A stretch of 63,743 bases of DNA, the filler included, from Licmophora abbreviata (Eukaryota): NCBI GenBank assembly GCA_900291995.1. It is 12 parts of 12 records of this genome, joined end to end, with 100 filler letters (N's around TTAATTAATTAA, not from the genome) between each part and the next. Parts side by side here need not be neighbours in the genome. Positions count along the whole stretch, not along the records: positions 36,141 to 47,236 come from OLMU01006025.1; 11 more parts are not named here. The stretch is one strand, 5' to 3'. Positions 7,886 to 47,447 of the stretch are shown piece after piece. The position numbers and the translations under genes were made by a program. Numbering within the stretch: the stretch's first letter is position 1; each line of letters begins with the position of its first letter. The notes under the pieces are model-generated. The model had not been told where the DNA came from. It saw nothing but the letters and a program-made list of their open reading frames with translations, and did not search any database.

Positions 7886-7985
7886 NNNNNNNNNNNNNNN
7901 NNNNNNNNNNNNNNNNNNNNNNNNNNNNNTTAATTAATTAANNNNNNNNNNNNNNNNNNNNNNNNNNNNNNNNNNNNNNNNNNNN
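7886..7985. other. Artificial assembly linker N44-TTAATTAATTAA-N44. Others at 20633-20732, 28529-28628, 30686-30785, 33015-33114, 34808-34907, 36041-36140, 47237-47336, 57214-57313, 61417-61516 and 62525-62624
   Basis: Eleven identical 100-nt blocks; the 12-mer has stop codons in all six frames. Confidence 0.97.
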
Positions 7986-20343: not shown

Positions 20344-20732
20344 TTGAAATAGCGGGAGTCATGTGTGCAATGACGTGGACGCAGGCAATCCATGAATGCT
20401 TCGACAGCTTTGACCCTATTGATGTGGCTTGTGTATCTACACAGACAGATTGTTCGCGTGCACGTGTCATTGTAGAGACTGACTGAACCGATAGAATTGC
20501 AGTTTGGCGAGATGGACGAATTGTCATTAGAAACCCCAGCAATCTGTTTGTGACGCCCCAAAGGATGGTTTCAAGATGCAGTGAGAACAACACGAGCTCC
20601 GAGCCCGAGATTTTGTATGGTCTTCTACTACTNNNNNNNNNNNNNNNNNNNNNNNNNNNNNNNNNNNNNNNNNNNNTTAATTAATTAANNNNNNNNNNNN
20701 NNNNNNNNNNNNNNNNNNNNNNNNNNNNNNNN

Positions 20733-28528: not shown

Positions 28529-29124
28529 NNNNNNNNNNNNNNNNNNNNNNNNNNNNNNNNNNNNNNNNNNNNTTAATTAATTAANNNNNNNNNNNNNNNN
28601 NNNNNNNNNNNNNNNNNNNNNNNNNNNNGTTCGTATCTTGTGTGATGCTGTTGGGGTGAAGTGCGGAGAGAATGATCACGCTCTTGCGTGTTGTGCTTCG
28701 TCAACCAAGATCGAAATTGATTCCGGGAAAAGTACTCTGTGATAATGTATGGCTAATTTTTATCGTACCAAGATCCTCCCTCATCAAAGTTCAAAGTCTT
28801 GAGTTCGGTATGGAGTATACTAGTCGAGTGAGTCGGAGTTGGAGAGAAACTGAAGGAGTCTGGAATCCAACTGCTCGCGTGTCTGCGGTATCATCTTTCT
28901 TCGAAGCGGTTTCAAAAAGAAAAAGGTAAAGCAGCATGACGGAAGACGCGACACTAGCTCTAGATTTATACAACCATAAGCTCTAAAGCATGAGTAGACT
29001 AAACTCTTTCACACAAAGTACCCGAAACGGGATGCGAGCTTTCCACCTTTCTCATTGCAGAATGTGTATGATATCATTCTGCATGCGCTCGCTCGATTGA
29101 ACCTGCTCGCCAGTGTACCTGTAT

Positions 29125-30456: not shown

Positions 30457-30785
30457 CGACTTTGTCTCCACTGTGCAACTTCAAGAATAATGGGAAGGCA
30501 GTAGATGGATGTTCTCGTCGCTCATGGTGCGGTTTGAGAAAATTGACCGACGACGTGGCGTCGTGTGATTTCATCCTTGAATCACGAGTCAGTCACGCTT
30601 CGAGTCGGAAGCAATTTTGAATGTAGTGGAACAAGTAAAGGTTTTGTATCGTACAGTGCCGGATTTCAGCATGAGAAGCAATCATNNNNNNNNNNNNNNN
30701 NNNNNNNNNNNNNNNNNNNNNNNNNNNNNTTAATTAATTAANNNNNNNNNNNNNNNNNNNNNNNNNNNNNNNNNNNNNNNNNNNN

Positions 30786-31635: not shown

Positions 31636-34488
31636 TTAGGCTACGTCCGTCGCCGTCTCTTCTTTCGTTCCATCCTCATTTCTGTTGTCGTCTTTGGCTC
31701 CCCCGACTTCTTCGTCCTTTTCCGCAACAGCATCGGCTACCACAACCGAATTCTTCGCATCGTCTCCCTTGACAAGATGCGGTCTAGGCCCACGCTCTTC
31801 CAAGCTTGGTTTGAGGTTGGGTTGGCCGTACAATTTGCGATCGACTGATTCTGCGTATGCACCCTCCGAGTCGGCGGGAGAAATCGGCGACAGCTCTCCT
31901 TCTTTCAAGTCTACATCTGCGGCTACTTCCGTGCTCAAGTCTTGGAGCGGACGGATAATGCTGTGCGTCAGTCGCACATGCAACACAATCGTCGCAACCA
32001 ATGGAACGACGCAGAAAATGGCTTGAGAGGCCCCTTCCTACAATGACAAAAAGTAGCGATTCAGTCCGTAAGAAATTTTGTGAGACAAGAAAGCACAGCA
32101 CCACTACATCACGGCTGGTGAAATACACGCATCGCACCTTGATTCCCAAGTATGCACAGACAATAATTTCGGCCGTGTACAAGCAGACCATAATGTAACG
32201 AAAGATCTTCTCCCAGATGACTCCTCCACCTTCGCCAATATTTCCATACACGTGAAGACAGTTGTGTTTCCAAACAACATAGTAAACGCCGAACAGCGCC
32301 GCGGCAAAGGGTTCCAGGAGTGGTACAATCACAATGTACACGAACGATACCAAGACAATAAAGATGATCGGCGGCAAGTAGAATCCCCACAAAAGCTCAC
32401 GCGGTTTCTTTCTCTCAATGAAGCGATCCGTCTTGAACCGAGGCTCGATGAAGCTCTTGAGAATCTGCTGACCAAACTCTGCCAAGTTGCTCAGATAGAA
32501 GTTGCTCATGACCCACGTATTGAGTATCGTCATGTTCAAGAAGAACGTAGAAGCGCCCGGGATGGCTGACGCCAACAGCGTCGCAATGCTCCTAGGGTCC
32601 TTAATCATGGCATCGATTTGATTAAAAGCGCTCCCGCCGACCAGAATCAACCACAGGTTGGCAAACTGGTAAAGCATGTACCACGAGAAGGTGTAAGCGT
32701 CTTTTTCGGGCATGCTCTTTTTGCGAATAACAAACTGTGCTGTCGACATGATCGCGATACAGAGGCAAACCATGAATCCTTGCAAGGCCAATGGTGGCAA
32801 GAGACCTGCCAGAAGTCCGTAGTAAAATGTATCCGGATTCAACTGGGGCAATCCAAAGGCTTCTAGAAGGGAGTTGAGGTTTGCGAGGCCCATGACGAAG
32901 GTCGCTGGGATCGCCCAAAACACAATGCCCAGAGTCCAGACTGCTCCAAAAATAGCAGCCAGACGCTGTTGCGTACCAGCAGAGACGGTCACATTATCCC
33001 ACACGATGGCCTTCNNNNNNNNNNNNNNNNNNNNNNNNNNNNNNNNNNNNNNNNNNNNTTAATTAATTAANNNNNNNNNNNNNNNNNNNNNNNNNNNNNN
33101 NNNNNNNNNNNNNNCGTGGTTTCCAAGTAGTTGGCCTTGCCGCCAATGTTACATTGAATCGCAGCTTGCTTCGCCCTCAGAGAGGTGAATGTCACGAACG
33201 CTGTCGATACCATCTTGTCGGAAATCACTTTTGTCTCATCGTCGTCGCTCGGCTCTTGCACCGGCACTCCGACCGCTGCAGAAGGGTCTTGTGGCTTTAC
33301 AGCCTCCTTTTTCTTAAGATCATCATCATCATTATCGTCATCGCCATCTGTTCCCAACATGATGGTATTCGTCATGTTTTGAAACATGCCAAGTACGTTC
33401 TGAATCCCACTCTTGTCATCGCGACCAACGGCACCACCAGTCGCTTCCGAAAAAAGTTTCGCTCGTTCTCCATCAATCTCCTCATTGAGCTTTGCAATTT
33501 CACGTTCATAGTAGGGAATCGCTTCCGTCTTGTTTCCTCCACAACCACACATGTTACCATCTTGTCGCACCGTCGGCACCGGCTTGTTTGGATACTCCTT
33601 TGTCATTGCAATGGCCTGTTCCAAGCTATGGAGGAATCCCGTCCGCTTGCGGACCAACCCATCGAGTACTACAGTATTCATGCAGACATGCACTTGATGA
33701 ATTGCATTAGGAAAGACGCGATTCAGGTAGTGGTAGAGTGCCTTGTTGGTACGCAGGTGCGGGGGCACATGTTCAATCAAGACCGCGTATCGATACTCCT
33801 GTTCCGTATCGACGTCGCCATGGGCCAAGAACTCGTATCGATAGGGCGCATAGGTCTCCTTCCACTCCAAGTAGAGTTCTCGTAGTACGAATCCGACAAA
33901 GAGCCACCAGACAATGGCCGAAGCCCACAACCTCGGAGATCCCTGCCCCACCTTGGCGAGAGTGATACTATTGAACTCTTCCGTGTCGTTTCCTTCTGCT
34001 TCGCCCGTGGCGTAGACTGGAATTAGAATCAAACAACCGAGGACGGTCCCAAAGAGACTGCATCGAAAGGAGAGTCTCAAGAAACGAAGAAACATAAAGG
34101 CATCCATCCCCACGATGCGGAGCGTCTCGCGGTCACTCAGGGCCATGGCCACTTGGGCCCATCCAAAGCAGCGGTAGTGTGGTTCTTCTGTAGTAGTAGT
34201 ACTACTACTACTTGCATATCCACTCCAGGGTGCCGCAGTCCGATGCGCCAATCCAAATTGGCGCATTTCATACAAGTCGTACTTGTCTTGTTGGTAGTGT
34301 TGACGACGCAAAAAGATAAAGATGAGATGCATGAATCCTCCAAGAAACATGCTGACCAAGAGAGTGACCCAAACGACACTCCAGGGAACAATAATAACGG
34401 CTTCTTCGACGGTCGTCGGGGCCATGGTGGGAAATGATGTGTCTACTGGTTGGTCGAGCCAGCGGTGATGGTGAGATTCATAGTTCAT
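31636..34488 (-). CDS. OSCA/TMEM63/CSC1 (ERD4-like) mechanosensitive cation channel; split by gap 33015-33114; intron 32038..32137
   Basis: GMDAFMFLRFL, ILIPVYATG, AVLIEHVP and TAFVTF lie before the gap. KAIVWDNV, FWAIPATFV and LYGQPNL lie after it. The intron joins YLGIK-EGASQ in frame. Confidence 0.9.
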
Positions 34489-34907
34489 CCTGTTGTTGCT
34501 ATAGTACTGTGATACCCGCAATCCAGTGGACTGGCAGTATCGACTGACTGCAATGATACGATACCGGTAGACCAGTGGTATGCCGTTATGATACTCTGCA
34601 GTTTGACGGAATCAATCAAGAAATCAATCGAAAAATCAATCGACGAATCTCGACAGACTGTTGCAGTGCAGCTCTCTCTCGCTGCAGCAGTAGCTACTGT
34701 ACGAATAGAAGAGTGATTCTATACTTGAATAGCTGTAGGATACTTTCGAGTCAGTCGCAGCGTGTGTTCCTGCTATGTACTCGTATGATAGTACGTATAC
34801 GAGCTCCNNNNNNNNNNNNNNNNNNNNNNNNNNNNNNNNNNNNNNNNNNNNTTAATTAATTAANNNNNNNNNNNNNNNNNNNNNNNNNNNNNNNNNNNNN
34901 NNNNNNN

Positions 34908-35828
34908 TTGTGCATTGATGGAGCTCACCAATTGCGCAACACGATTGCATCGCTCCTCCTGTTCCGAGGGGAACATGGGGAACAGCAGATGACCAACACT
35001 CATCCACACAATCTCGCACTGCACGTCTTCGGGGAGAGCTCTGGCGAATGTGCTGCTCTGAAGTAGCAGTGTCGACACTAGACGCCGAGCTTGATCATGG
35101 GCCGAGTGTAGTGCGTTTCGAACATGATCGTTGCGGTCCCTGTCTTCAGCCGAAAGGACACGTGCAAAGTCGAACGGCATGACGTTTCTCTCAAATGCAT
35201 TCAGCGCGTTGTCTCTGGCCATTGTGGGGAGAGCTTCAAATGGCCTGACGCCGAAGATTCTCGGTTCCTCGATCAGGCGATTCACGACATCGAGAGGACC
35301 CTCAATGGCCGCATGAATGATCGCATCATTTTTCTGGTCACTCGGATCTACTCTCTCATCTTGCAACAAGCGATTCACAACCTCGAGATGGCCAAACCGG
35401 GACGCTAGAATGATCGCTTGATTATTCAGGTCACTCGGATCAACTCTCTCATCTTCCAACAAGCGATTCGCAACCTCGAGATGGCCAAACCGGGACGCAT
35501 GAATGATCGCATTATTATCCTTGTCACTCGGATCCACTCTCTCATCTTGCAACAAGCGATTCACAACCTCGAGATGGCCAAACCAGGACGCCAAAATGAT
35601 CGCCAAATTATTCTGGTCACTCGGATCAACTCTCGCATCTTGCAACAGGACGTCCACGACGTCGGCGTGGCCTTGCTGTGCTGCTTCATGGAGGGCGCGC
35701 TGAAAGCTTACAGCCGGGTCCAATCCCTCATCCTGAATGAGACGAACCACCGCTCCAAGATCACCACTTGCTGCGGCCGAAAACAATTCTCTATTGATCG
35801 CAGCAGCAGAAGACCTTCCGTGATTCAT
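34908..35828 (-). CDS. Ankyrin-repeat protein with 31-aa VDPS-type repeats; single exon; end abuts a gap
   Basis: RVDPSDxxNxAIIxASxFGHLEVVNRLLxDE occurs about 4 times, plus two divergent N-terminal repeats. Confidence 0.88.
35270..35645. repeat. 93-bp coding tandem repeat, about 4 copies
   Basis: tcactcggatc recurs at 35338, 35431, 35524 and 35617, an exact 93-bp period. Boundaries approximate. Confidence 0.9.
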
Positions 35829-36219
35829 CGTTGCGTTGCACCTTGCGCTGATCAAAATGGACGTGGCAGCATCACAACGAGGACAAAGGACAGCAAAGAC
35901 AGGGTGCAATGTGCAATGCTGCTGCCATTCGATCCTCAGTGACGGAGACTGACAGGTACGAATACCGGGTATCATACGGTGATTACGTAGGACCTGCGTG
36001 CCCTAGACTCGACTCATGCGACTTCGTTTTCGCTTGTGCGNNNNNNNNNNNNNNNNNNNNNNNNNNNNNNNNNNNNNNNNNNNNTTAATTAATTAANNNN
36101 NNNNNNNNNNNNNNNNNNNNNNNNNNNNNNNNNNNNNNNNTGTCCTATGCTATTTCTCGATGATTTGCATCGCTGATTTTTTTCTCTGCTTTGTTTTTCA
36201 CTCGCTTGCTCGCAACCAG

Positions 36220-39200
36220 CAACAGTGGACTCCCCCTTCCGCTTCTGGCAGCAACAAAAAGAAAGAAATATCCAAACAGCGTTCGGTTGCAAGGAGAATC
36301 AAGATGCATGCACAGGAAGGTGCTGCTGATGTCGGGCACTTGGTCGTCGAGAGAGACAACAGTGATCCTACTGCCGATTCTTTGCTGTTGAATGACGCGT
36401 CGTCTCTCTCGCGAAACTCGTCGACCAACACGGCCGATTCACCTCGTCAGTATACCCATCACCCGTCCTCGGCGTCGTCCTCGGGAGTCTTGTTAGGAAA
36501 GAGTTCCTCACTCATTTTCCCCACCGGCGTAGAGAATCCCAACAAGTCGGCAAGTAGTGACACGGTCTCCAACATTTCGTCCTCTCAAGATGAAGGTGCG
36601 AGTAGTGCCGAGACGGATCCGCGCATGCGTCGAAAGTTGAACTTGTTGCTTGATCAGTGTGAGACTGTCCGGTTTCCGTTCAAGAAAAAACTTGCGATGG
36701 AGAATATGAACTTATCGTCGCAGGACATACCAATTAAAGATCTCTGTGGCACGTCGCTGGGAAACACATTGCACAAACTAAGTTTGTCTGGAAATCGATT
36801 GACGATCCTCCCTGACATCCTAGTGCAGAGCTTGCCTGTGCTCAAGACCCTCGATCTCAGTCAGTGTGATCTTGTGCAGCTACCGAGCCGATGGAATCTT
36901 CCTCAGCTCAAGCGACTCAACCTTTCGCACAATCGTTTGACGGAATTTCTGGAAGAGGTACGCGTGAGGGAGATAGCATGAACGAGACATGCTCTCGATC
37001 ACTTTGACTAATGTCGGTTCTCCCTTTTCATCTTGCAGGGGGTTCTTGAAGGATTGCAAGAGCTCAATGAGCTCAATATGTACGGCAACAAGGTGGCCGA
37101 AATCATCGTGCCGCACAATACGCGGCTGCTGTCCAAGCTCGAAGTGCTCAATCTGGGGTACAACGATTTGGCGTACTTGCCAGACGAGCTCGACCAAATA
37201 CATTCTCTCAAAACGCTCCGCGTGATGAACAACTTCCTCGAAAAAGTCCCGATGCGAATATGCGACATGGATTCGATGCGAACTCTCGACGTATCTTCCA
37301 ACCCTGTCATTCAGCCCCCAATCGAAACGTGCGAAAGAGGTATCTGTAGCATGAAACGCTACTACCATTGCTTGCGAATGGAAGAGCAGACGAAGCAGAA
37401 GGCACTCGAGGAAGTACAAAAGAAGTTGCTGAAGCAAAAGAAGCGAGAAGAAAAGGGCAAGTCGAGAAAGAAGAAATTCTCTTTCTCAGGTACCAAGACG
37501 CCATCACCGGTGACATCAAGCAGTAAGATGGTCACGACGCCCCCTCCCCTGGCTCAACTTTTTAGCGCCATGCCTCCACAGCCTGTTCCGAAGACTGCGG
37601 CCGCACTCGATCTCTTGGAGACGCCGATAGAAGAGAGACCCTCTGTTCTTACCTCCAAGGTGGCAGAGAGCGGTATCGGAGCTGAAGAGAAGGAGAAGGT
37701 TCGGCGTACTTCATCGATGGACGACGAATTAATCGACGTACGCGAACCAGAGGATGAAGTGACGATCAACGACACGCTGAAGGTTATTTTCGTAGGCATG
37801 GCGCTGGCGGGAAAGACGAGTATGATCAAGCGCCTCATCGAAGGAAAGGATGCCGTCATCCCGAAGCGCGATGAACGGACCGTCGGTGTGGATATCTACG
37901 AGTGGGATCCTGTTACGGAAAACAAACAGATTGAACTAGAGGATCAAGACCTAGCTGAAATCTGCGGAGACGTCCCAGTCAAGTTCAGCGTCTGGGACTT
38001 CGCGGGCCAGCATGTCTATCATGCGACACATGAACTCTTTTTCTCGCCTAGAGCACTCTACGTTCTGGTGTGGGACATGGGCGCTACCAACCGCGAGACA
38101 CAGCGGCGAAAACTCTCGATGATGGAGGGAGAGCAAGGAGCTTTCAAATTGTCCTACGACTCGTCTGACGAAGAGGAGGAAGACGATTTTATGGCCGAAG
38201 AGGAGGCACGACGTGCGGATCGCGCGCTTGAACGAGACATCGACGAAAAAGTACAGTTTTGGGTAGACTGTATACAAAGCAGCGCTCCAGGAGCCGCCAT
38301 TCTTCCGGTGGCGTCGTTTGACGATTATTTTGCTCGTGGCGGCAACGAGGAAGAAGCAAAACGGCGTTGCAGGATTATGAAACATCGCTTACTGAAGCAC
38401 GAAGAAAGGAGGATCGCTGGGATCAAGGAACGCTTAAAGGAATACTACTCCCAGAATCGAGCTAGCGACGAAGTCGCAGTCCGCCTCCGTAAGCTTCTTT
38501 GCCCTTATACTCGGCCAAAGCTTGTACTTGGATCCGACGACAACGATAGCGTTGTGCGAGTGAGCGGTACGAAGTACACAGGATTCACGCGCTTGACTGA
38601 CAAGATTGTGGACATTGCCACTGGCCGCGACAAAGCTGGCTGGAGATACCCAATCTTTAGGGGTCATGTCGGAGCTCGCATTCCGCGGATGCGACTTCAG
38701 GTCCGTGAGACAGTCCGTGACATGCGTGACAAGTTCAAGGTTGTCGAATGGGGATATTTCATTAGCGCTCTTCGAGAACGGGGCCTCGACAACGTGGAGG
38801 ATATCAGTGATGCGCTACATTTTCTGACAAACATAGGTGAGCTATCTTATTTCGGCAATGTCTTCCAGAGTCATGATGGTATGAGTGAAAAGATGGTTGA
38901 CACGTATGATAACCGAAGGGTAAGCGCAATCATGTCATGCAAAACGCAGGGTGGCGAGATCCCGCTACCTCTGATCCGTGATCCCGACGACGACGATGAT
39001 GGAGAGTTCGACGACGACGAGAAATCGGTTCTGTTTATGGATGACATCAGTGTCACAGCCTCCAACACCAATGGCGATGGATCCTTGAGTACCATGGACG
39101 ATCTCATGGCGAATGGACTCTCCCAGTTCGTGTTCTTGAACCCGCGCTGGCTTGTCGCGTCTGTCGCATGCATCCTTCGCCATGATTTGGACAGAGAAAT

Positions 39201-41175
39201 TCGAGATACTCGACGCTCGCTTTCTCGGGGAACCAACCGCCGTGTCGATCGAGGCGACAGCTTCTACGAGGCAAATCTTAACTGCCCGATCATCACTGCT
39301 GAAGATGCCTGCCTCCTTTGGCAGGCCAAGAAATTCACCAAGAAGGCAGCTGAGAGGGCGCTCGAATACTCGAACAACATGACTGTCACCCCATTTGGTT
39401 TCCTCCAACGCGTGCTCATTCGATTCGGCGTCTTCGTCCCTATCGACTTGAGCATCGACAAGGCTCTTCTTGGCGGAAAAGAATACGCGAAATACGCCGA
39501 GAATGGAGACGAGATATCGCCGTCTGACATGGAGCTGACTGTTGTGCATGGTGAAGTTGATAACTCTCCTCAGTTCTTTTTCCTCCCGAGTCTCCTTGGT
39601 CCAGGGGAACCATCCGAGGCCTGGACGTACAAAAACACAGACAGCTGGAAGACAACGCTGTGCCACTCGATCCTGTTCCCCGATGGAGTGCCGCCTGGGC
39701 TGATGGAACGAATCACTGCGGCAGTGTTGAGCAGTGTTTACTCTGCGTCCAGCATATCAAGGGTATCTTCTCCGGATGCCGATGCAATCAGCAAGAATTT
39801 CGAGGGTCATATCAGCGTCAAGGAGATCCTTTGCTGGCGAACTGCATTTTTCATAAAGCTTGGCCTGGAAGTCGGCAGCGAGAGTGGCGATGTGAAGGAA
39901 AGTATTGTTGAAATATTCACACATCTTGCCGACCGTGAGTCACACCTTTGTGTCGGCTCAGACGTGATGGGTACAGGCATGAGACGACTAGTACTGAGCG
40001 CGAAGGGTCAAGTTGGCGACGGAGGCCGCAAGATTTGGAATGGGGGCTATTTGCTCGTCATCAGAGCCATAGGAAGGGTCATGAATGAGTACGGAGGCCT
40101 CGAGTTCGAGAAGCAAGGATTCTGTCCGGAATGCCTCTCAAAGAAGGCGGTGGGCCAAGCTAGTGCATGGGACTGGACCGTGATTCGCGCGGCCGCACAG
40201 AACGGCGACGATACGATGAGATGTCGACATGGACACCGAGTGGACACTCGATTAATCACCGGCCCAGGCGATTCACTCTCTCAGCCAAAGCGCGAGATTG
40301 CGAGCCAGCCGAGGTTTACGGATGGCGAACCAATTATCCCGGTCAATGACCTGCTCCGCGGCGTTGTCATTGTTGGGCTGTGGGATGGGAAAGCCCGCAA
40401 GGTCGTTCGCGTTGGTTCTGGGTTCGTAGTCGACAAGAAACGCGGCTTGATTGTGACGGCGAGTCACACTCTCATGAACATTTGGGGCGACAAAAGCACG
40501 CCGTTCGGCGACAACTACTACGGGCTCCGCGAGGGGAAGGTGGTTATCGGCGTCATTCCGAGAAGTCGAAGCTCCCAGAACGGTGGGGACGAGACGATGG
40601 CAGTCTTTCGATACTTTGCCAAGATTGTAGCGAAGGACCCTAGTATCGACGAGAAAGGGGAATGTCATTCGGACGTGTGTATACTGAGAATTGTTACACG
40701 TATGGAGAGCGATGTGGGCGGTAATGGAGAGGGGTGTGGAAACGAACCTGAACGGTTGCTTCTCAACAATCCAGATGCTATGAAACGAGAAAAGCTGCAA
40801 CAGCTGAAGGTCACGGACAAGTGTGAATTGGACGAGCAAGTTCGTATTCTTGGGTTCAATCAAGGCGGCGAGGGACTTCTGGGTCCCGGGGAGAGCTTGA
40901 ATCGTTACGTCGACTTTGCTCGAGGATACGTGTGCAAGAAGTTTGCAACTGGTGAAGACAGCGGCGGCTACATGCGGCATCGCTTTAAGCCACGCGAGGA
41001 AATTGTTGCCATTTGCCCGACCATTGGGGGGCATAGCGGAGGCCCTTGTGTGAACCAGCAAGGCGAAGTGATTGGAATCCTAAGCCGGGCAGATCCAGCG
41101 GAGAACCACAGATGCTACCTCGTTCCTGCCTATGAGTGGAAGGCACTAGTCAAGCGGGCCAAGAATACGTTCTAG
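36220..41175 (+). CDS. Roco protein: LRR - ROC GTPase - COR - Cys/His knuckle - trypsin-like serine protease; intron 36958..37038; probably 5'-incomplete
   Basis: About 8 LRRs and hinge NPVIQPPIETCERG. P-loop GMALAGKTS (37795), RTVGVDI, WDFAGQHVYHATHELFF. COR motifs FLNPRWL, FFLPSLL, VPPGLMERI, then CPEC...CRHGH. Protease motifs GSGFVV, TASH (His 40465), DVCIL (Asp 40672), GHSGGP (Ser 41035). Acceptor-like cag at 36217-36219; first in-exon ATG at 36304. Confidence 0.93.
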
Positions 41176-41487: not shown

Positions 41488-44312
41488 TCAAAGCTTCAGA
41501 CGATCTAAGCACTGCCATTGTCGAAACGGGCTGACCAATGAGTTTGCTGCACTCGCACCATTCAATGCGACTGCCGGGATGCCGATTCCGGGAAAGATGC
41601 TGTCGCCCGCAAGGACAAGGTTTTCGATCGGCGTGCTTCCATCCCTCAAGTAGTCCTCTGGAGATTCAATTGGAAGAGAGATGACATGGGAATGGTGAGA
41701 TCAGTGATATCGACCGATGACTTTCTCTCGAGACTTTGAATATGATACGAAGCCCGGCAGCTCACCCGTCGCAGCTCCATAAGTCCCTTCGATTCTCCGC
41801 AAGAATCGCTCGTGTGTCAGGGGTGACCCAACTAGCTTGATGACCACACGTTCTTCCAGATCGGGAATAATGCTTTCAACTGCTCGGTAAAGAACCTGCG
41901 CACGTTCTTCCTTCAGTCTCTGATACTCGGGAGAATCTCGTTTCATGCCTTTCCATAGGCTGTACGGTTCGTTTCCAGCCCCGTATGCGTGAACGATTAT
42001 GTACCCTTCCGGTGCCAGCGATCGATCAATTACGCAGGGATTCGAGACGGCAATCATGTTAAGCTCATCGCAGGGACCTTCTGTTAGACCTCTATCCATG
42101 ACAGTGTAGTGTGCCTCCATAGAATTCAAGTCAAGTCCTGTAAGAGAATTGAACCAAAGGTATTAGAGAACACAGCCAATCGCTCGTATTCGATGACACA
42201 TGCCGCGACTGCAAAGCGCTCACCATCCGCCTTGATCGCAAGATGAACGTGAAGGAAAGAGCCCGTCATTTCGGCAGTTTCCGTCTTGGAAAAGAAACTC
42301 TCGAAATTGCTTGTGGAAGGTGGACGTGTCGGAGAATTGTAGCTGCCTTCGTCCGTCACGTTCCATGTCCGTCGCCTGGCGTATCGGATACTCTCAGGGA
42401 GATAGCCGTTCATTGTTCGATACGCCAGCTCATGTTTGATGAGACTTCGAATGGACCATACGGGTACATTGCAAACAACGCCGTCGCGTGCCAGAACCTT
42501 TCTTTCGCCTCTTAATGTCAAGCCCGTTGCTCTCTTTCCGTTCCACGAAAAATCGATCGATTCGACGCGCCGTCGAAGATTTACCTTCGATCCATTGTCG
42601 TTCTGCTCCACAGCTTTGACCAGTGCATCTACGACGGAGCCTAGGCCTCCTTTCGGATAATCTAGTGAAGCCTCGGGGCGATGCATGTCAAACAGAACGT
42701 ACGCCATCGCCGCCGCCGCTGTCCTCGACGCGGGGAGACCACTCAGACTAAAAGCCAGCGCGTCAAGCCATGATCGAAGCCATGGATCAGTTACGGTATA
42801 TAGCGGACCGTCAATGAATGGCGCAAACACTCCGGTATTCAGATCACCTTGCTGCAGTAGCTCCACTAGCGCAGGAAGGTGGCGCAACAGTGGAATGAGA
42901 GCCGAGTTTCCAGGTCGCATGGCCATAGCCGGTATGTCTACAGCTCCACGCCCAAGAGGAGCCGTCTTCTCTCGCAGCTCGGAGAACTCCTGCAATGCTT
43001 TTCCACCACCAAACTCTTTCAACGGCCCCTCCTCAAAGACATCTGGGCCTAGTTTGAACTTCCATCGCTTCTCATCTACCCTACTTGGTCTTTCAATCAT
43101 ACCCCACCCATCATAGGGTATCCATTCCACATCTTGTTGAACAGCATCTAGGATCTGCCGTAGCGGATTGAAGGGAGGCGAGCTGCATCCAAGCAAAATA
43201 GTCGGACCGGAATCGAACGTGAACGTGTCTCCATTGGACGACACCCGATCAAATGCGTGTGCACACCCACCAGCCAAGTAATGTGATTCATACACGCCTA
43301 CTTTCTTCCCATACAAGGTATTGAGGATCGCTCCAGCACAAAGACCACCGATTCCAGCTCCAACAATTGCGACATCCACTTCTTCAGGCTCGTTGAGAGA
43401 GGAATTGTCAAGCTGTGATCCTGAACGATAAGGAGCAATCGACACCTCTCCATCCCCACGGGCGGTATCGTCGTTGCCGGACGAACTACCTGCGTCGAAT
43501 GATTCCGACGATGTATTCTCTGTAGCCGAAGCGACAATACGATTGTACACCGCATTAGTCATCTTATCGGGCTCTGACGATTCATCGTGACTCGGCACGC
43601 CAACCGTCGTCGACTTATCGCTGACGTGATTACCACTAGAGTCGATTGTCGTTTCGATACTATTGACGGCGACTGCTGGCTTTGGCATACGGATTACATG
43701 CCGAGTCCCTTGATGCTGGCACTGCTTCAGATACTCTAGCCGGGACCCAAAGTGCACGATTTGTGATTCTGGAGACGAAAGCTTATCTTCGTCAGCACTC
43801 AATGTCGGCTCGATACACAAGTAGTAGTATTGCTGCGCCAAGGATTCTATTTGAACCATATCGCTCTTGCCATCACTGGTGCCTTGCCCCCAACGCAGAA
43901 TAGCTTGATCCAGCTGCTGCGACAGCCCTCGATCATGCCGGTGGGTCGTGAGTCTATTCGATGAGGTAAGGGGTCTGTCTTTCAAGGCTTCATTCAGTGC
44001 AGCTGCCACGTCGCAGACTAAGCTCTCGATTTCCTCCAAGTGTAGATCGATCTGATCCGCATGTACCGGACGGTACAGTGCCACAGCTCCGTCCAACAAA
44101 CTTCGGAGCTGGTCGATCTCCGTGCGACTCTCGATTTCGTACGCTTGCAGGAAGTCTGTCCCAGAATGCAGAGCGCGAGCAAAGCCTGTCGAGATTGTGG
44201 ATCCCGCTCCTATTCGTCGTGGGCCTACTATGACTGGCCGTGTCACCCATGCAAGACATTGATCCGAAAGTGCAGCGAGCATCGCTAGAGTCACAACAAC
44301 AATCCTTGACAT
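41488..44312 (-). CDS. CRTISO-like FAD-dependent carotenoid isomerase/oxidoreductase, plastid-targeted; introns 42138..42223 and 41658..41765
   Basis: Rossmann motif VAIVGAGIGG, AGGCAH, FDSGP, YPKGG, SPLTHERFL and C-terminal GDSIFPGIGIPAVA, all in frame after splicing. Signal peptide ends in CLA-W. Confidence 0.9.
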
Positions 44313-44800
44313 GCTGATTGTACAGTCCCTTTTCGCACGACGAAAAGAACGAACTGGAGTGTTATTTTGTTCCCTTGGAGTGACGGGCGGCTTGATCTTT
44401 GTTGACGACTCGATCGTTCTCGATATTGATGTCATCGAAATTTCAAATTGACGTTGAATTCGAAGAAATTAAGAATGAAGTGCAACTTCGGGCTCGAAAA
44501 TTGCGTCTTGAAGGGGTCCTTTCGACAGAATTTCGACTGTGCCGGTATACAGCGCTGCCAAATGGATAAGAATGCAAGCAACGAATGTGAGTTGAGATAT
44601 TGCAGTCCATGCTGTGGTTTCGGCTGCGGCAACCCTGCTCTTCGGTTCACATTGCATGACGTACGCGTGGACGGCATCTGTCGCTCGGACAATCTTTCTT
44701 AAAAATCCTGCAGTCAAAGAAAAGTATCATGACATACTCGAAACTTCTGGAAGAAGGGGACCGCCACTACGTCGTGTGAGCTTTCAAACTTCTCAATACC

Positions 44801-46661
44801 ATGACGGAAGAAGACTCGCAGCACGATACTGACGGCGATCAGCCGCCGCCGTCTATTTCCTCGTCGAATTACGAGTCCCCACAGCTTCCTTACGAATACA
44901 CATTGCCTGTAGACTCGAAACAGAATGATCGGGCTTTGCAGATTCAGATTTGCTCGACTGCACGCCCACACATGCGAGCTTTTCACTGTTCATGGGTCTC
45001 CTTCTTTACCGGCTTCTTCTTGTGGTACGTGATCTGATGAACTGATGAACTCACTAACTTGTTCATTCTGGGGCTACCTTCTCTTGTCGGCGTGACTCGT
45101 CTGCACCGTTTCGCGTTTCGAAAGCTCTGCGCGGGTGTCAATGTACCGAATACTAAGTACTCGTACGTTCTTATTTCTAAGAATCCCATTGTCCTCCTCG
45201 CACGCCCCCAGGTTTTCCATCTCCCCACTGCTTGCGGAGGTTCAACGAGATCTGGGTTTGTCACGGAACAATATTTGGGTAACGACGATATGTAGTGATA
45301 TCAGTACCCTCTTTCTACGCTGGATGCTTGGCCCGATCAACGATCAGTATGGAGCCAGAATTCCGATGGGAATCACTTTAATTGTTGCCGCCATTCCAGT
45401 CGGCATGACGGGCCTAGTTGACTCCTACGCTGGTCTCACCATCTTGCGTTTTGCAATTGGTACTGTCGGAACCACCTTTGTCATGTCTCAGTACTGGTAA
45501 GAAGCACACGATTATAGTGCGGCGCGAGTCATGGCCTTGCTCGTGCGCGTATTTCTCGACGACAATACTTACCTTCGCTTTTGCGTCGCACAAACATGAA
45601 AAAGGTCTTCGAGAATGTTCGCCAAGGGAGTCACTGGAACTGCAAATGCGATTGTTGCGGGATGGGGAAATTCTGGAGCTGGAGTCGCCTCGCTCGTCAT
45701 GGGCGCTCTGCTATTTCCCTTGTTTCGAGACAATGTCTATGGCGGCGATAGCGAAAAGGCATGGCGTACCATCTTTGTCATTCCTGCTGTCATTGCGGTG
45801 GTCGTGGGAATCGCAATCATGAAATACAGTGACGATGCTCCTCAGGGATACTATAGCGAAATGAAACGACAAGGAACCATGGACTTGTCAGCTATCCGGG
45901 CCAAGTTCCGATCCCGTACATCTATTCGGAATGCTTGGCTCCTTGCCATCCAGTATGCCGTATGCTTTGGAGTGGAAATTACCATGAACAATGCACTTTC
46001 ATTCTACTTTCAAGACGTGTTTAGTGAGAGCATAGAGTCGGCGGCTGCGCTGACAAGCATTTTCGGGTTGATGAATTTGTTTGCCCGTGCGTGTGGTGGT
46101 ATGCTCAGCGACCGATGGAACTCGACCATGGGAATGAGAGGACGACTTCGAGCGCAAACTTGCTGTTTGATTCTTCAGGGATGCGCAACGATTGGCTTTG
46201 CATATGCCGATGGATCTCTCAGTGCTACCATTCCTACGATGATCATCTTCTCTATCTTTCTGCAGGCTTCTGAAGGCGCCATCTTTGGAATAGTGCCGTA
46301 TGTGAACAGCCCGCTGACTGGTTTGATTGCAGGAATTGTCGGTTCCGGAGGAAACTTGGGAGGGGTCATATTTTCCATTTGTTTCACTCAATTTTCCTAT
46401 CAAACTGTCTATATCATCATGGGAGTTTCAGCTATTGTCGCGTCGTCCCTGAGCGCGTTCATCCGCATTCCTGGGCACGCTGGACTGCTATGGGGGACGG
46501 ACATTGTGTCGCAAGAGCCGGTAGGTAAAACGAGCCGTATTGTATTCTTGCGCAAAGTCTTATTCACTCACTGTGGGTGTTTGTTGCTGTGCCTCGGGTA
46601 GACGAGTGGCCATCCAGGACCAACGACCAGGCAGTCCGATGAAGAGGCCGGAAATGAGTAG
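44801..46661 (+). CDS. NRT2: High-affinity nitrate transporter (NRT2/NNP family, MFS); introns 45025..45211, 45497..45604 and 46521..46601
   Basis: PHMRAFHCSW, GTANAIVAGWGNSGAG nitrate signature, FGVEITMNN, FARACGGMLSD. The conserved TM2 and TM8 arginines are present. Three GT-AG introns restore the frame. Confidence 0.93.
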
Positions 46662-46921: not shown

Positions 46922-47447
46922 CTAAGGGAGTCTCGTGAGTGTCCATCCACATTCTTCTTCCAGTTCCTCTGCGGTAATCACATCGAACACAGCACTACCT
47001 GGAGCAGGGTTAGGCTGCTTGTTGCGGGGCGCTTCCTCTTCTTCGTGATTGAGAGCTTGGTTGTAGACATCCAATCGACGCTGTAGTTTGACATCAGCAT
47101 TTCTGAGGTCGGCCCGCACCTTCTTGTGCGCCTGCTGAACATGTGAGACAAGGCTCTACAGTTCCAGCTTCGTCTTTGCGCTAGCCATCTGAAGGTTTTC
47201 GATGGTCCCCATGGCGTCAGCGAGCTGCTTTTCCAANNNNNNNNNNNNNNNNNNNNNNNNNNNNNNNNNNNNNNNNNNNNTTAATTAATTAANNNNNNNN
47301 NNNNNNNNNNNNNNNNNNNNNNNNNNNNNNNNNNNNGCTTGGCTTCTTGGCGTCGACGTCGTCTTCCGTAGTCGTAGTCGTAGTGGCAATGCGATTCGCC
47401 GCGGCGGGGTGGTTCTCTGCTGCGTTCTGGTTGAAGAAGGACGACAT
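46922..47447 (-). pseudogene. Coiled-coil ORF split by gap 47237-47336, with an in-frame TAG at 47156-47158 (pseudogene or sequencing error)
   Basis: LEKQLADAMGTIENLQMASAKTKLEL*SLVSHVQQAHKKVRADLRNADVKLQRRL reads as one helix across the stop. MSSFFNQN... on the far side of the gap may be the N-terminus. Confidence 0.4.

Follow-up and report, generated by a model that had tools for sequence, protein, structure and literature searches.

A diatom Roco protein with a C-terminal HtrA-like serine protease domain, conserved from centric to pennate species

We analysed a stretch of 63,743 nucleotides from the diatom Licmophora abbreviata (GenBank assembly GCA_900291995.1), hereafter the window. It consists of 12 contigs joined by 11 spacers of 100 nt (N44-TTAATTAATTAA-N44, with stops in all six frames), which lie at 7886-7985, 20633-20732, 28529-28628, 30686-30785, 33015-33114, 34808-34907, 36041-36140, 47237-47336, 57214-57313, 61417-61516 and 62525-62624. 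Because the window is made of joined contigs, gene order over a spacer carries no meaning, and a gene at the edge of a contig may be incomplete. The gene studied here encodes leucine-rich repeats (LRRs), a Roc GTPase, a COR domain and a C-terminal chymotrypsin-fold serine protease domain. This Roco gene lies whole within a single contig (36141-47236), with no spacer inside.

The first plausible ATG is at 36304, 163 nt from the contig edge (36141), and no boundary was found at 36220, where an initial annotation made from the sequence alone had placed the start of the feature. The + strand frame is open from the first base of the contig to 36957 and again from 37012 to the TAG stop, and the interior of the intervening intron contains two in-frame stop codons (TGA, 36979; TAA, 37009). 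From the Met at 36304 onward, the two exons encode at least 1,596 aa (218 + 1,378). The initial annotation had given one frame of about 1,600 aa or more; the frame is not uninterrupted. The splice model is supported by homologues that align straight over the exon 1/exon 2 join: the two residues flanking it hit neighbouring positions in P0034 (415/416), P0022 (381/382), P0005 (336/337) and P0013 (435/436). Homologue alignments reach residues about 21-218 of exon 1 and cover 99-100% of exon 2, and full-length homologues carry 150-450 extra N-terminal residues, which are unconserved. Since the frame is open to the contig edge at 36141, the N-terminus of the Roco gene may be incomplete and its start is provisional.

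About eight LRRs with an NPVIQPP hinge, a Roc GTPase with the motifs GMALAGKTS and WDFAGQ, a COR domain, a CPEC...CRHGH knuckle and a chymotrypsin-fold domain with a complete triad, its Ser at 41035, had been read initially, and all of these were recovered at the positions given in Table 1. Direct reading gave eight repeats, which run from residue 130 of exon 1 to residue 100 of exon 2, and Pfam matched LRR_4 (37.2 bits) and LRR_8 (35 bits) in exon 1, both over the cutoff. The array ends in a conserved NPVIQPPxETCERG cap or hinge (NPVIQPPIETCERG), with NPVIQPP at exon-2 residue 88. Roc (PF08477) scored 55.6 bits against a cutoff of 27, and Trypsin_2 (PF13365) 52.1 bits against a cutoff of 27.6. 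The CCCH element stands at the C-terminal end of the range aligned with COR-B and forms a small alpha/beta unit with a predicted local distance difference test (pLDDT) value of 82-89; it is a putative zinc-binding site. A Pfam search at E≤5 of the zinc-site region and the middle of COR gave nothing meaningful, and Pfam (E≤0.01 for PDZ) detected no PDZ, kinase, death, NACHT or NB-ARC domain in the protein.

Table 1 Features of the Roco gene, in window coordinates.
Feature	Position	Strand	Description and evidence
Exon 1	36304..36957	+	218 aa; low-complexity Ser-rich N-terminus, then LRR1-4 from 36691
LRR array	36691..37338	+	8 repeats, intron-spanning; direct reading, Pfam, conservation
Intron	36958..37038	+	81 nt, GTACGC...TTGCAG, phase 0
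Exon 2	37039..41175	+	1,378 aa and TAG stop at 41173-41175
LRR-Roc linker	37339..37758	+	Lys/Ser/Pro-rich, poorly conserved; median identity 0.17
Roc GTPase	37759..38448	+	Pfam PF08477, E 7.6e-15; motif invariance; structure match
P-loop GMALAGKTS	37795-37821	+	Lys at 37813
Switch-I Thr	37879	+	Roc domain
WDFAGQ	37993-38010	+	DxxGQ at 37996-38010
G4-like [ST]FxD	38314-38325	+	Roc domain
COR-A and COR-B	38449..40281	+	Pfam sub-threshold in two pieces; model alignment to LRRK2
Disordered acidic insert splitting COR-A	38869-39114	+	pLDDT <50
CCCH zinc-knuckle-like site (CPEC...CRHGH)	40123..40236	+	Cys 40123, Cys 40132, Cys 40222, His 40234
Tether between zinc site and protease	40264..40338	+	Disordered, about 25 residues; median identity 0.24, pLDDT <50
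HtrA/DegS-like chymotrypsin-fold serine protease	40339..41172	+	PF13365 Trypsin_2, E 1.5e-13; Foldseek; VIA
Catalytic triad	His 40465-40467, Asp 40672-40674, Ser 41035-41037	+	H/D/S order

We searched for homologues with exon 2 and obtained 149 matches; the following counts are from the 120 listed. Roc and Trypsin_2 occurred together in 96 of the 120. The 21 homologues with Trypsin_2 but without Roc were all short and partial-looking, with a query coverage of at most 76%, and only three had Roc without Trypsin_2. Among the listed diatom homologues, identities were 46-74% over about 100% of the 1,378 aa. Every named source in this list was a diatom, either pennate (Nitzschia, a Bacillariaceae metagenome-assembled genome (MAG), Cylindrotheca, Mayamaea, Epithemia and Pseudo-nitzschia) or centric (Thalassiosira and Skeletonema), and each named species appeared once in the listed orthologues. 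None of the matches was identical to the L. abbreviata protein, which is thus absent from the searched collection. Database names of the homologues include 'Miro domain containing protein', 'Serine protease' and 'GTPase SAR1 family protein/S1-C subfamily serine protease'. Roc and Trypsin_2 were also found together in MMETSP transcripts marked as complete (P0026, P0036, P0073 and P0090), and the fusion occurs in Leptocylindrus as well. As these complete-marked transcriptome open reading frames (ORFs) carry both domains, they provide single-mRNA evidence for the fusion in relatives.

These observations bear on whether neighbouring Roco and protease genes had been read through or misassembled as one frame, an alternative that the initial annotation had itself raised. 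The assembly is fragmented, the window consists of joined contigs, and the segment 40300-40400 had been flagged as a possible seam. Even so, the gene sits inside one contig without a spacer, its frame stays open for 1,378 codons, the same fusion recurs in homologues of varied origin (96 of the 120 listed), complete transcriptome ORFs included, and the C-terminal module of zinc site and protease stands at the C-terminus of database representatives of 1,100-2,100 aa. The description of a single diatom gene with LRR-Roc-COR followed by a protease is therefore borne out, and an artefact is effectively refuted. Fifteen contigs of one run map on the gene, three of them at ≥99% (36588-36735, 39324-39520 and 39505-39661); they contain no joint, and none spans the intron or 40300-40400, a coverage that is uninformative.

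We then counted residues in a 121-row alignment of the homologues. The P-loop Lys was present in 99 of 100 rows and the switch-I Thr in 100 of 100, and the Asp, Gly and Gln of DxxGQ were each found in 100 of the 100-101 occupied rows. Since the GTP-binding motifs are invariant across homologues, nucleotide binding appears to matter. The G4-like strand ends in [ST]-F-x-D, with Asp in 112/112 rows and no Asn or Lys. Each of the four CCCH ligands was conserved in 119/119 occupied rows, and the triad His, Asp and Ser in 118/118 rows each; the residue preceding the catalytic Ser was His in 116/118. Median identity to the homologues was 0.70 for the LRRs, 0.77 for Roc, 0.71 for COR-A and 0.73 for the protease, compared with 0.17-0.32 for the linkers. 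At the exposed LRR positions (20 x sites of LxxLxLxxN in the four exon-2 LRRs), the mean frequency of the top residue was 0.75, against 0.90 for the LRR scaffold, 0.77 for the protease domain and 0.34 for the linker. Every folded domain, the exposed LRR face included, is thus under strong purifying selection, and the whole fusion is conserved from centric to pennate diatoms and is ancient within diatoms. Judged from its relatives, the gene looks like a low-copy, strongly conserved diatom orthologue.

An acidic insert in Roc (38044-38238, exon-2 residues 336-400) continues as a long helix ending near residue 415. Its median identity is 0.68, nearly that of the G-domain core, so the insert is no low-complexity accident.

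We utilized AlphaFold2 to predict the structure of the protein from Roc to its end (1,149 aa; pLDDT 76, predicted template modelling score (pTM) 0.66) and of its last 359 aa (pLDDT 85, pTM 0.74). Model residues 10-852 aligned to LRRK2 1326-1870, which we take to be Roc plus COR-A/B, with Z 23-25.5 over about 480-500 residues (VIA-align; Foldseek agrees), and they also matched LRRK1 by both methods. The RocCOR of Methanosarcina barkeri Roco2 (4wnr) aligned with Z 25.9 and a root-mean-square deviation (rmsd) of 3.4 over 321/323 residues (VIA-align). COR, which is sub-threshold in Pfam, was nevertheless recognised in these alignments to LRRK2, LRRK1 and Roco2 (Z 23-26), and those to LRRK2 and 4wnr place COR-A/COR-B directly C-terminal of Roc. 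GxxxxGKT, the switch-I Thr and DxxGQ are all present and invariant in the homologues; the only NTPase match in Pfam is Roc/Ras, with no NACHT/NB-ARC ATPase core, and the fold is that of Roco G domains. The protein is a member of the Roco family and is neither an NLR nor a STAND protein.

Like LRRK2 and LRRK1, the diatom protein has an LRR-Roc-COR-A-COR-B core with a catalytic output directly after COR-B. Unlike them, its output is an HtrA-like serine protease rather than a kinase plus WD40, it shows no ARM or ANK region, and it carries the CCCH site at the end of COR-B, the acidic insert in COR-A and the helical acidic insert in Roc; identity to LRRK2/LRRK1 is 19-22%. The prokaryotic Rocos (M. 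barkeri Roco2, 4wnr; Chlorobium tepidum Roco, 6hlu/3dpu) share the Roc-COR tandem, and that of C. tepidum also has N-terminal LRRs, but they lack an enzymatic output domain after COR.

Model residues 861-1149 aligned to DegS, DegQ, DegP, HtrA1 and Deg1 with Z of about 22-23 and rmsd 2.3-3.0 over about 190 residues, and Foldseek matched the protease to DegS/DegQ/DegP with E of about 1e-11; sequence similarity to the Protein Data Bank (PDB) was marginal (phmmer E 0.01). The domain shares with the HtrA family (DegS, DegP, DegQ, HtrA1/2, plant Deg1; MEROPS S1C) its fold, the H/D/S order and the G-x-S-G-G loop, and differs in having no PDZ and no signal or transit peptide, with an identity of 14-22%. 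The protein ends 45 residues past the catalytic Ser, leaving it without the PDZ domain of the HtrA/S1C family, so that strictly speaking it falls outside that family. The triad is intact, and catalytic activity is predicted. An ESM Atlas search with the C-terminal module returned generic Trypsin_2 clusters only, and NCBIfam gave only a generic likeness of the LRRs to Xop effectors and short matches at the HtrA active site, far under the cutoffs. No 19-residue window exceeded a Kyte-Doolittle mean of 1.43, so that no transmembrane-like segment was detected, and the hydropathy scan revealed no N-terminal hydrophobic leader after Met 36304. The protein is predicted to be soluble and is probably cytosolic.

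We analysed the wider distribution of the zinc-site-plus-protease module by searching 1.84 billion representatives with HMMER. At E≤1e-3 this identified only 308 proteins, of which 167 also passed E≤1e-30, and the module was usually C-terminal in proteins of 1,100-2,100 aa. Because ordinary bacterial HtrA/Trypsin_2 proteins mostly miss the threshold, the module forms a distinct, closed protease lineage. When every representative with a length of 800 aa or more (54) was analysed with Pfam, Trypsin_2 was found in 54/54, Roc and/or COR-A in 30/54, LRRs in 2/54 and an N-terminal WWE and/or U-box in 8/54, the rest showing Trypsin_2 only at the thresholds used. From the C-terminal 400 aa we generated a quick IQ-TREE phylogeny of 62 rows. 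The window protein, which shares 78% identity with N. inconspicua, grouped with Nitzschia, Bacillariaceae and Cylindrotheca. An LRR-type clade of 30 rows (SH-aLRT 98) included Thalassiosirales. The WWE/U-box proteins were monophyletic (SH-aLRT 100) on a long stem inside the LRR-type clade, a placement that is unsafe. Another 27 rows formed a second paralogue group (support 80), with second copies in the same genomes: P0140 comes from the Bacillariaceae MAG that also encodes P0019, and P. multiseries has both P0262 and P0105. The names obtained for remote relatives (30 representatives looked up) were all diatoms, namely Leptocylindrus, Chaetoceros, Odontella, Pseudo-nitzschia and a Bacillariaceae MAG.

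Members of the second, more divergent paralogue group (P0140 and P0262) have the same C-terminal module and no Pfam N-terminal domain at E≤1e-5. In eight metagenomic proteins (P0150, P0162, P0166, P0173, P0174, P0198, P0220 and P0239), one or two WWE domains and a U-box replace the LRRs, and a dedicated search for such forms gave only three close relatives. P0234 (1,289 aa, named 'S1-C subfamily serine protease' by JGI) contains Trypsin_2 twice but neither Roc nor COR at a detectable level; this distant relative stands at the end of a very long branch (4.55) in the tree.

Proteins of this general layout have been reported before. In brown algae, PMC11378527 (Front Plant Sci 2024) describes three 'group 3' ROCOs with an additional peptidase domain (IPR009003) at the C-terminus, which lack the exon shuffling of the expanded groups. 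According to the same article, C-terminal peptidase ROCOs also occur in other organisms of the stramenopile-alveolate-rhizarian (SAR) group, and diatom and oomycete species have at most four ROCOs each. As described there, the SAR peptidase ROCOs resemble the diatom protein in having LRR-ROC-COR followed by a PA-clan peptidase, and also in their low copy number, absence of LRR exon shuffling and stramenopile/SAR distribution. The likeness is by description only, as that article analyses neither fold, motifs, zinc site nor function and cites no peptidase-bearing example from diatoms; its text supplement contained no occurrence of the relevant terms. Since the named relatives found here are all diatoms, occurrence outside diatoms is taken from PMC11378527. 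PMC3341825 describes one atypical Ectocarpus ROCO that is nearer to diatom ROCOs, and in both papers the expanded LRR-ROCO genes are proposed as immune receptors in brown algae. Roco/AP-GTPase-COR modules occur in bacterial conflict systems, with no Roc-COR-protease fusion described in the available part of PMC7159879. The 2019 Roco review PMC6337361 contains no occurrence of protease, peptidase, diatom or algae, and a full-text literature search found no functional study and no characterised protein of LRR-Roc-COR-protease architecture. The initial annotation, which knew of no characterised protein of this kind, was right in that none was found, but peptidase ROCOs are already present in the databases and in PMC11378527. 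The architecture itself is already known, and the diatom gene is a further member of a known, uncharacterised kind.

Taken together, we lean, with modest confidence, towards a soluble Roco with an HtrA-like output, in which binding of a partner by the LRRs and the Roc-COR cycle gate the protease. The LRRs would bind a conserved cellular partner or substrate, and the nucleotide state and monomer/dimer cycle of Roc-COR, known in other Rocos, would control the access or activation of the tethered protease. The protein would thereby serve a conserved pathway, such as stress, proteostasis or cell-fate control, as a signalling or processing protease gated by GTP. The GTP-gated protease proposed initially fits the invariance of motifs and triad and the position of the protease after COR-B; the coupling itself was put forward by inference. 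Because the exposed LRR sites are as conserved as the protease and copy number is low, the partner is probably a conserved one rather than a variable pathogen ligand, an argument that is qualitative since the aligned rows are related and not independent.

The fold, nearest to the HtrA/DegS/DegP quality-control proteases, and the disordered, poorly conserved 25-residue tether ahead of the protease would also suit a constitutive or self-acting, nucleotide-independent enzyme that performs HtrA-style quality control or autoprocessing at the tether, with Roc-COR as a scaffold or localisation device. We consider this improbable: the GTP-binding motifs are invariant or nearly so over homologues, the PDZ that HtrA proteases use for substrate sensing is missing, and the protease never stands apart from Roc-COR where Pfam detects Roc-COR (30/54 long homologues).

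The initial annotation went further and proposed an NLR/inflammasome-like pathogen sensor. STAND/NLR-protease immune systems include animal inflammasomes, bacterial Avs and gasdermin-associated proteases. With these the diatom protein shares only a functional logic of repeat sensor, NTPase switch and protease effector, here placed in one chain; they use a NACHT/NB-ARC STAND ATPase and the diatom protein a Roc small GTPase, it shows neither diversification nor a partner gene context, and there is no homology past the generic protease fold. An innate-immune sensor-executioner, whose LRRs would detect a viral or bacterial ligand so that Roc-COR oligomerises and the protease executes defence or cell death, could draw on the available accounts of Roco/AP-GTPase-COR modules in prokaryotic conflict systems (PMC7159879) and of expanded brown-algal LRR-ROCOs as proposed immune receptors (PMC3341825, PMC11378527), and on the replacement of LRRs by WWE plus U-box in 8/54 long representatives. 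We nevertheless regard it as unlikely. The protein has no STAND ATPase, the named species appear once each in the listed orthologues at 46-74% identity over the full length, and the exposed LRR positions are conserved like the catalytic domain. Moreover, the peptidase-bearing brown-algal ROCOs are, according to PMC11378527, those without exon shuffling or expansion, and PADLOC matches were marginal (LeoA 22 bits, RT-Protease 18-19 bits). The claim of an NLR-like sensor is therefore not sustained: the conserved low-copy orthologue with conserved exposed LRRs and a Roc GTPase has a striking architecture that is real, but it is neither a unique discovery nor a likely diversifying immune receptor.

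Several points weigh against the GTP-gated protease that we favour. The coupling of GTP state to proteolysis is a proposal drawn purely from domain order and co-conservation. The canonical G4 guanine-specificity motif is NKxD, and here it is [ST]FxD, so that nucleotide specificity and affinity are presumed from sequence. The Pfam score of COR-A (30.8 bits) is under its cutoff of 35.3, and a juxtaposed triad and an unoccluded active site are presumed. The N-terminus may be cut by the contig edge, with a possible loss of a targeting signal. The 121 aligned rows are related and many are metagenomic, and so they are not independent observations. Finally, conserved receptors of conserved microbial patterns exist, and LRR conservation only lowers the probability of an immune role.

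Rocos have been studied mainly via LRRK2, where the control of the kinase by Roc-COR is still debated, and a natural Roco with a protease output provides a separate way to follow the same Roc-COR switch, one that is easy to assay. As the gene is conserved across diatoms, which are major marine primary producers, the pathway is probably important to diatom cell biology. Since relatives carry WWE plus U-box for LRRs, the input module appears exchangeable; those relatives would couple the GTPase-protease to a putative ADP-ribose reader and an E3 ligase. A bolder and doubtful extension is that the protein represents a conserved ochrophyte 'GTP-switched protease' chassis with exchangeable inputs (LRR; WWE plus U-box), serving as a cell-fate or stress executioner in diatoms. 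Were this true, it might control, for example, programmed cell death when a bloom ends or following infection, and it would be the first Roco in which proteolysis is gated directly by the G-domain, giving a tractable read-out of Roc-COR output control.

Other genes were noted around the locus. An ankyrin-repeat protein ORF (34908-36002, - strand, Ank_2 87.5 bits) was considered as a divergent neighbour of the Roco gene and rejected, as it sits on the preceding, separate contig. Downstream on the same contig as the Roco gene lies a flavin amine-oxidoreductase/NAD-binding gene (41704-44468, - strand), probably with an intron, which resembles a carotenoid isomerase or desaturase. It is followed by a fragment of an MFS transporter at 45600-46598 on the + strand.

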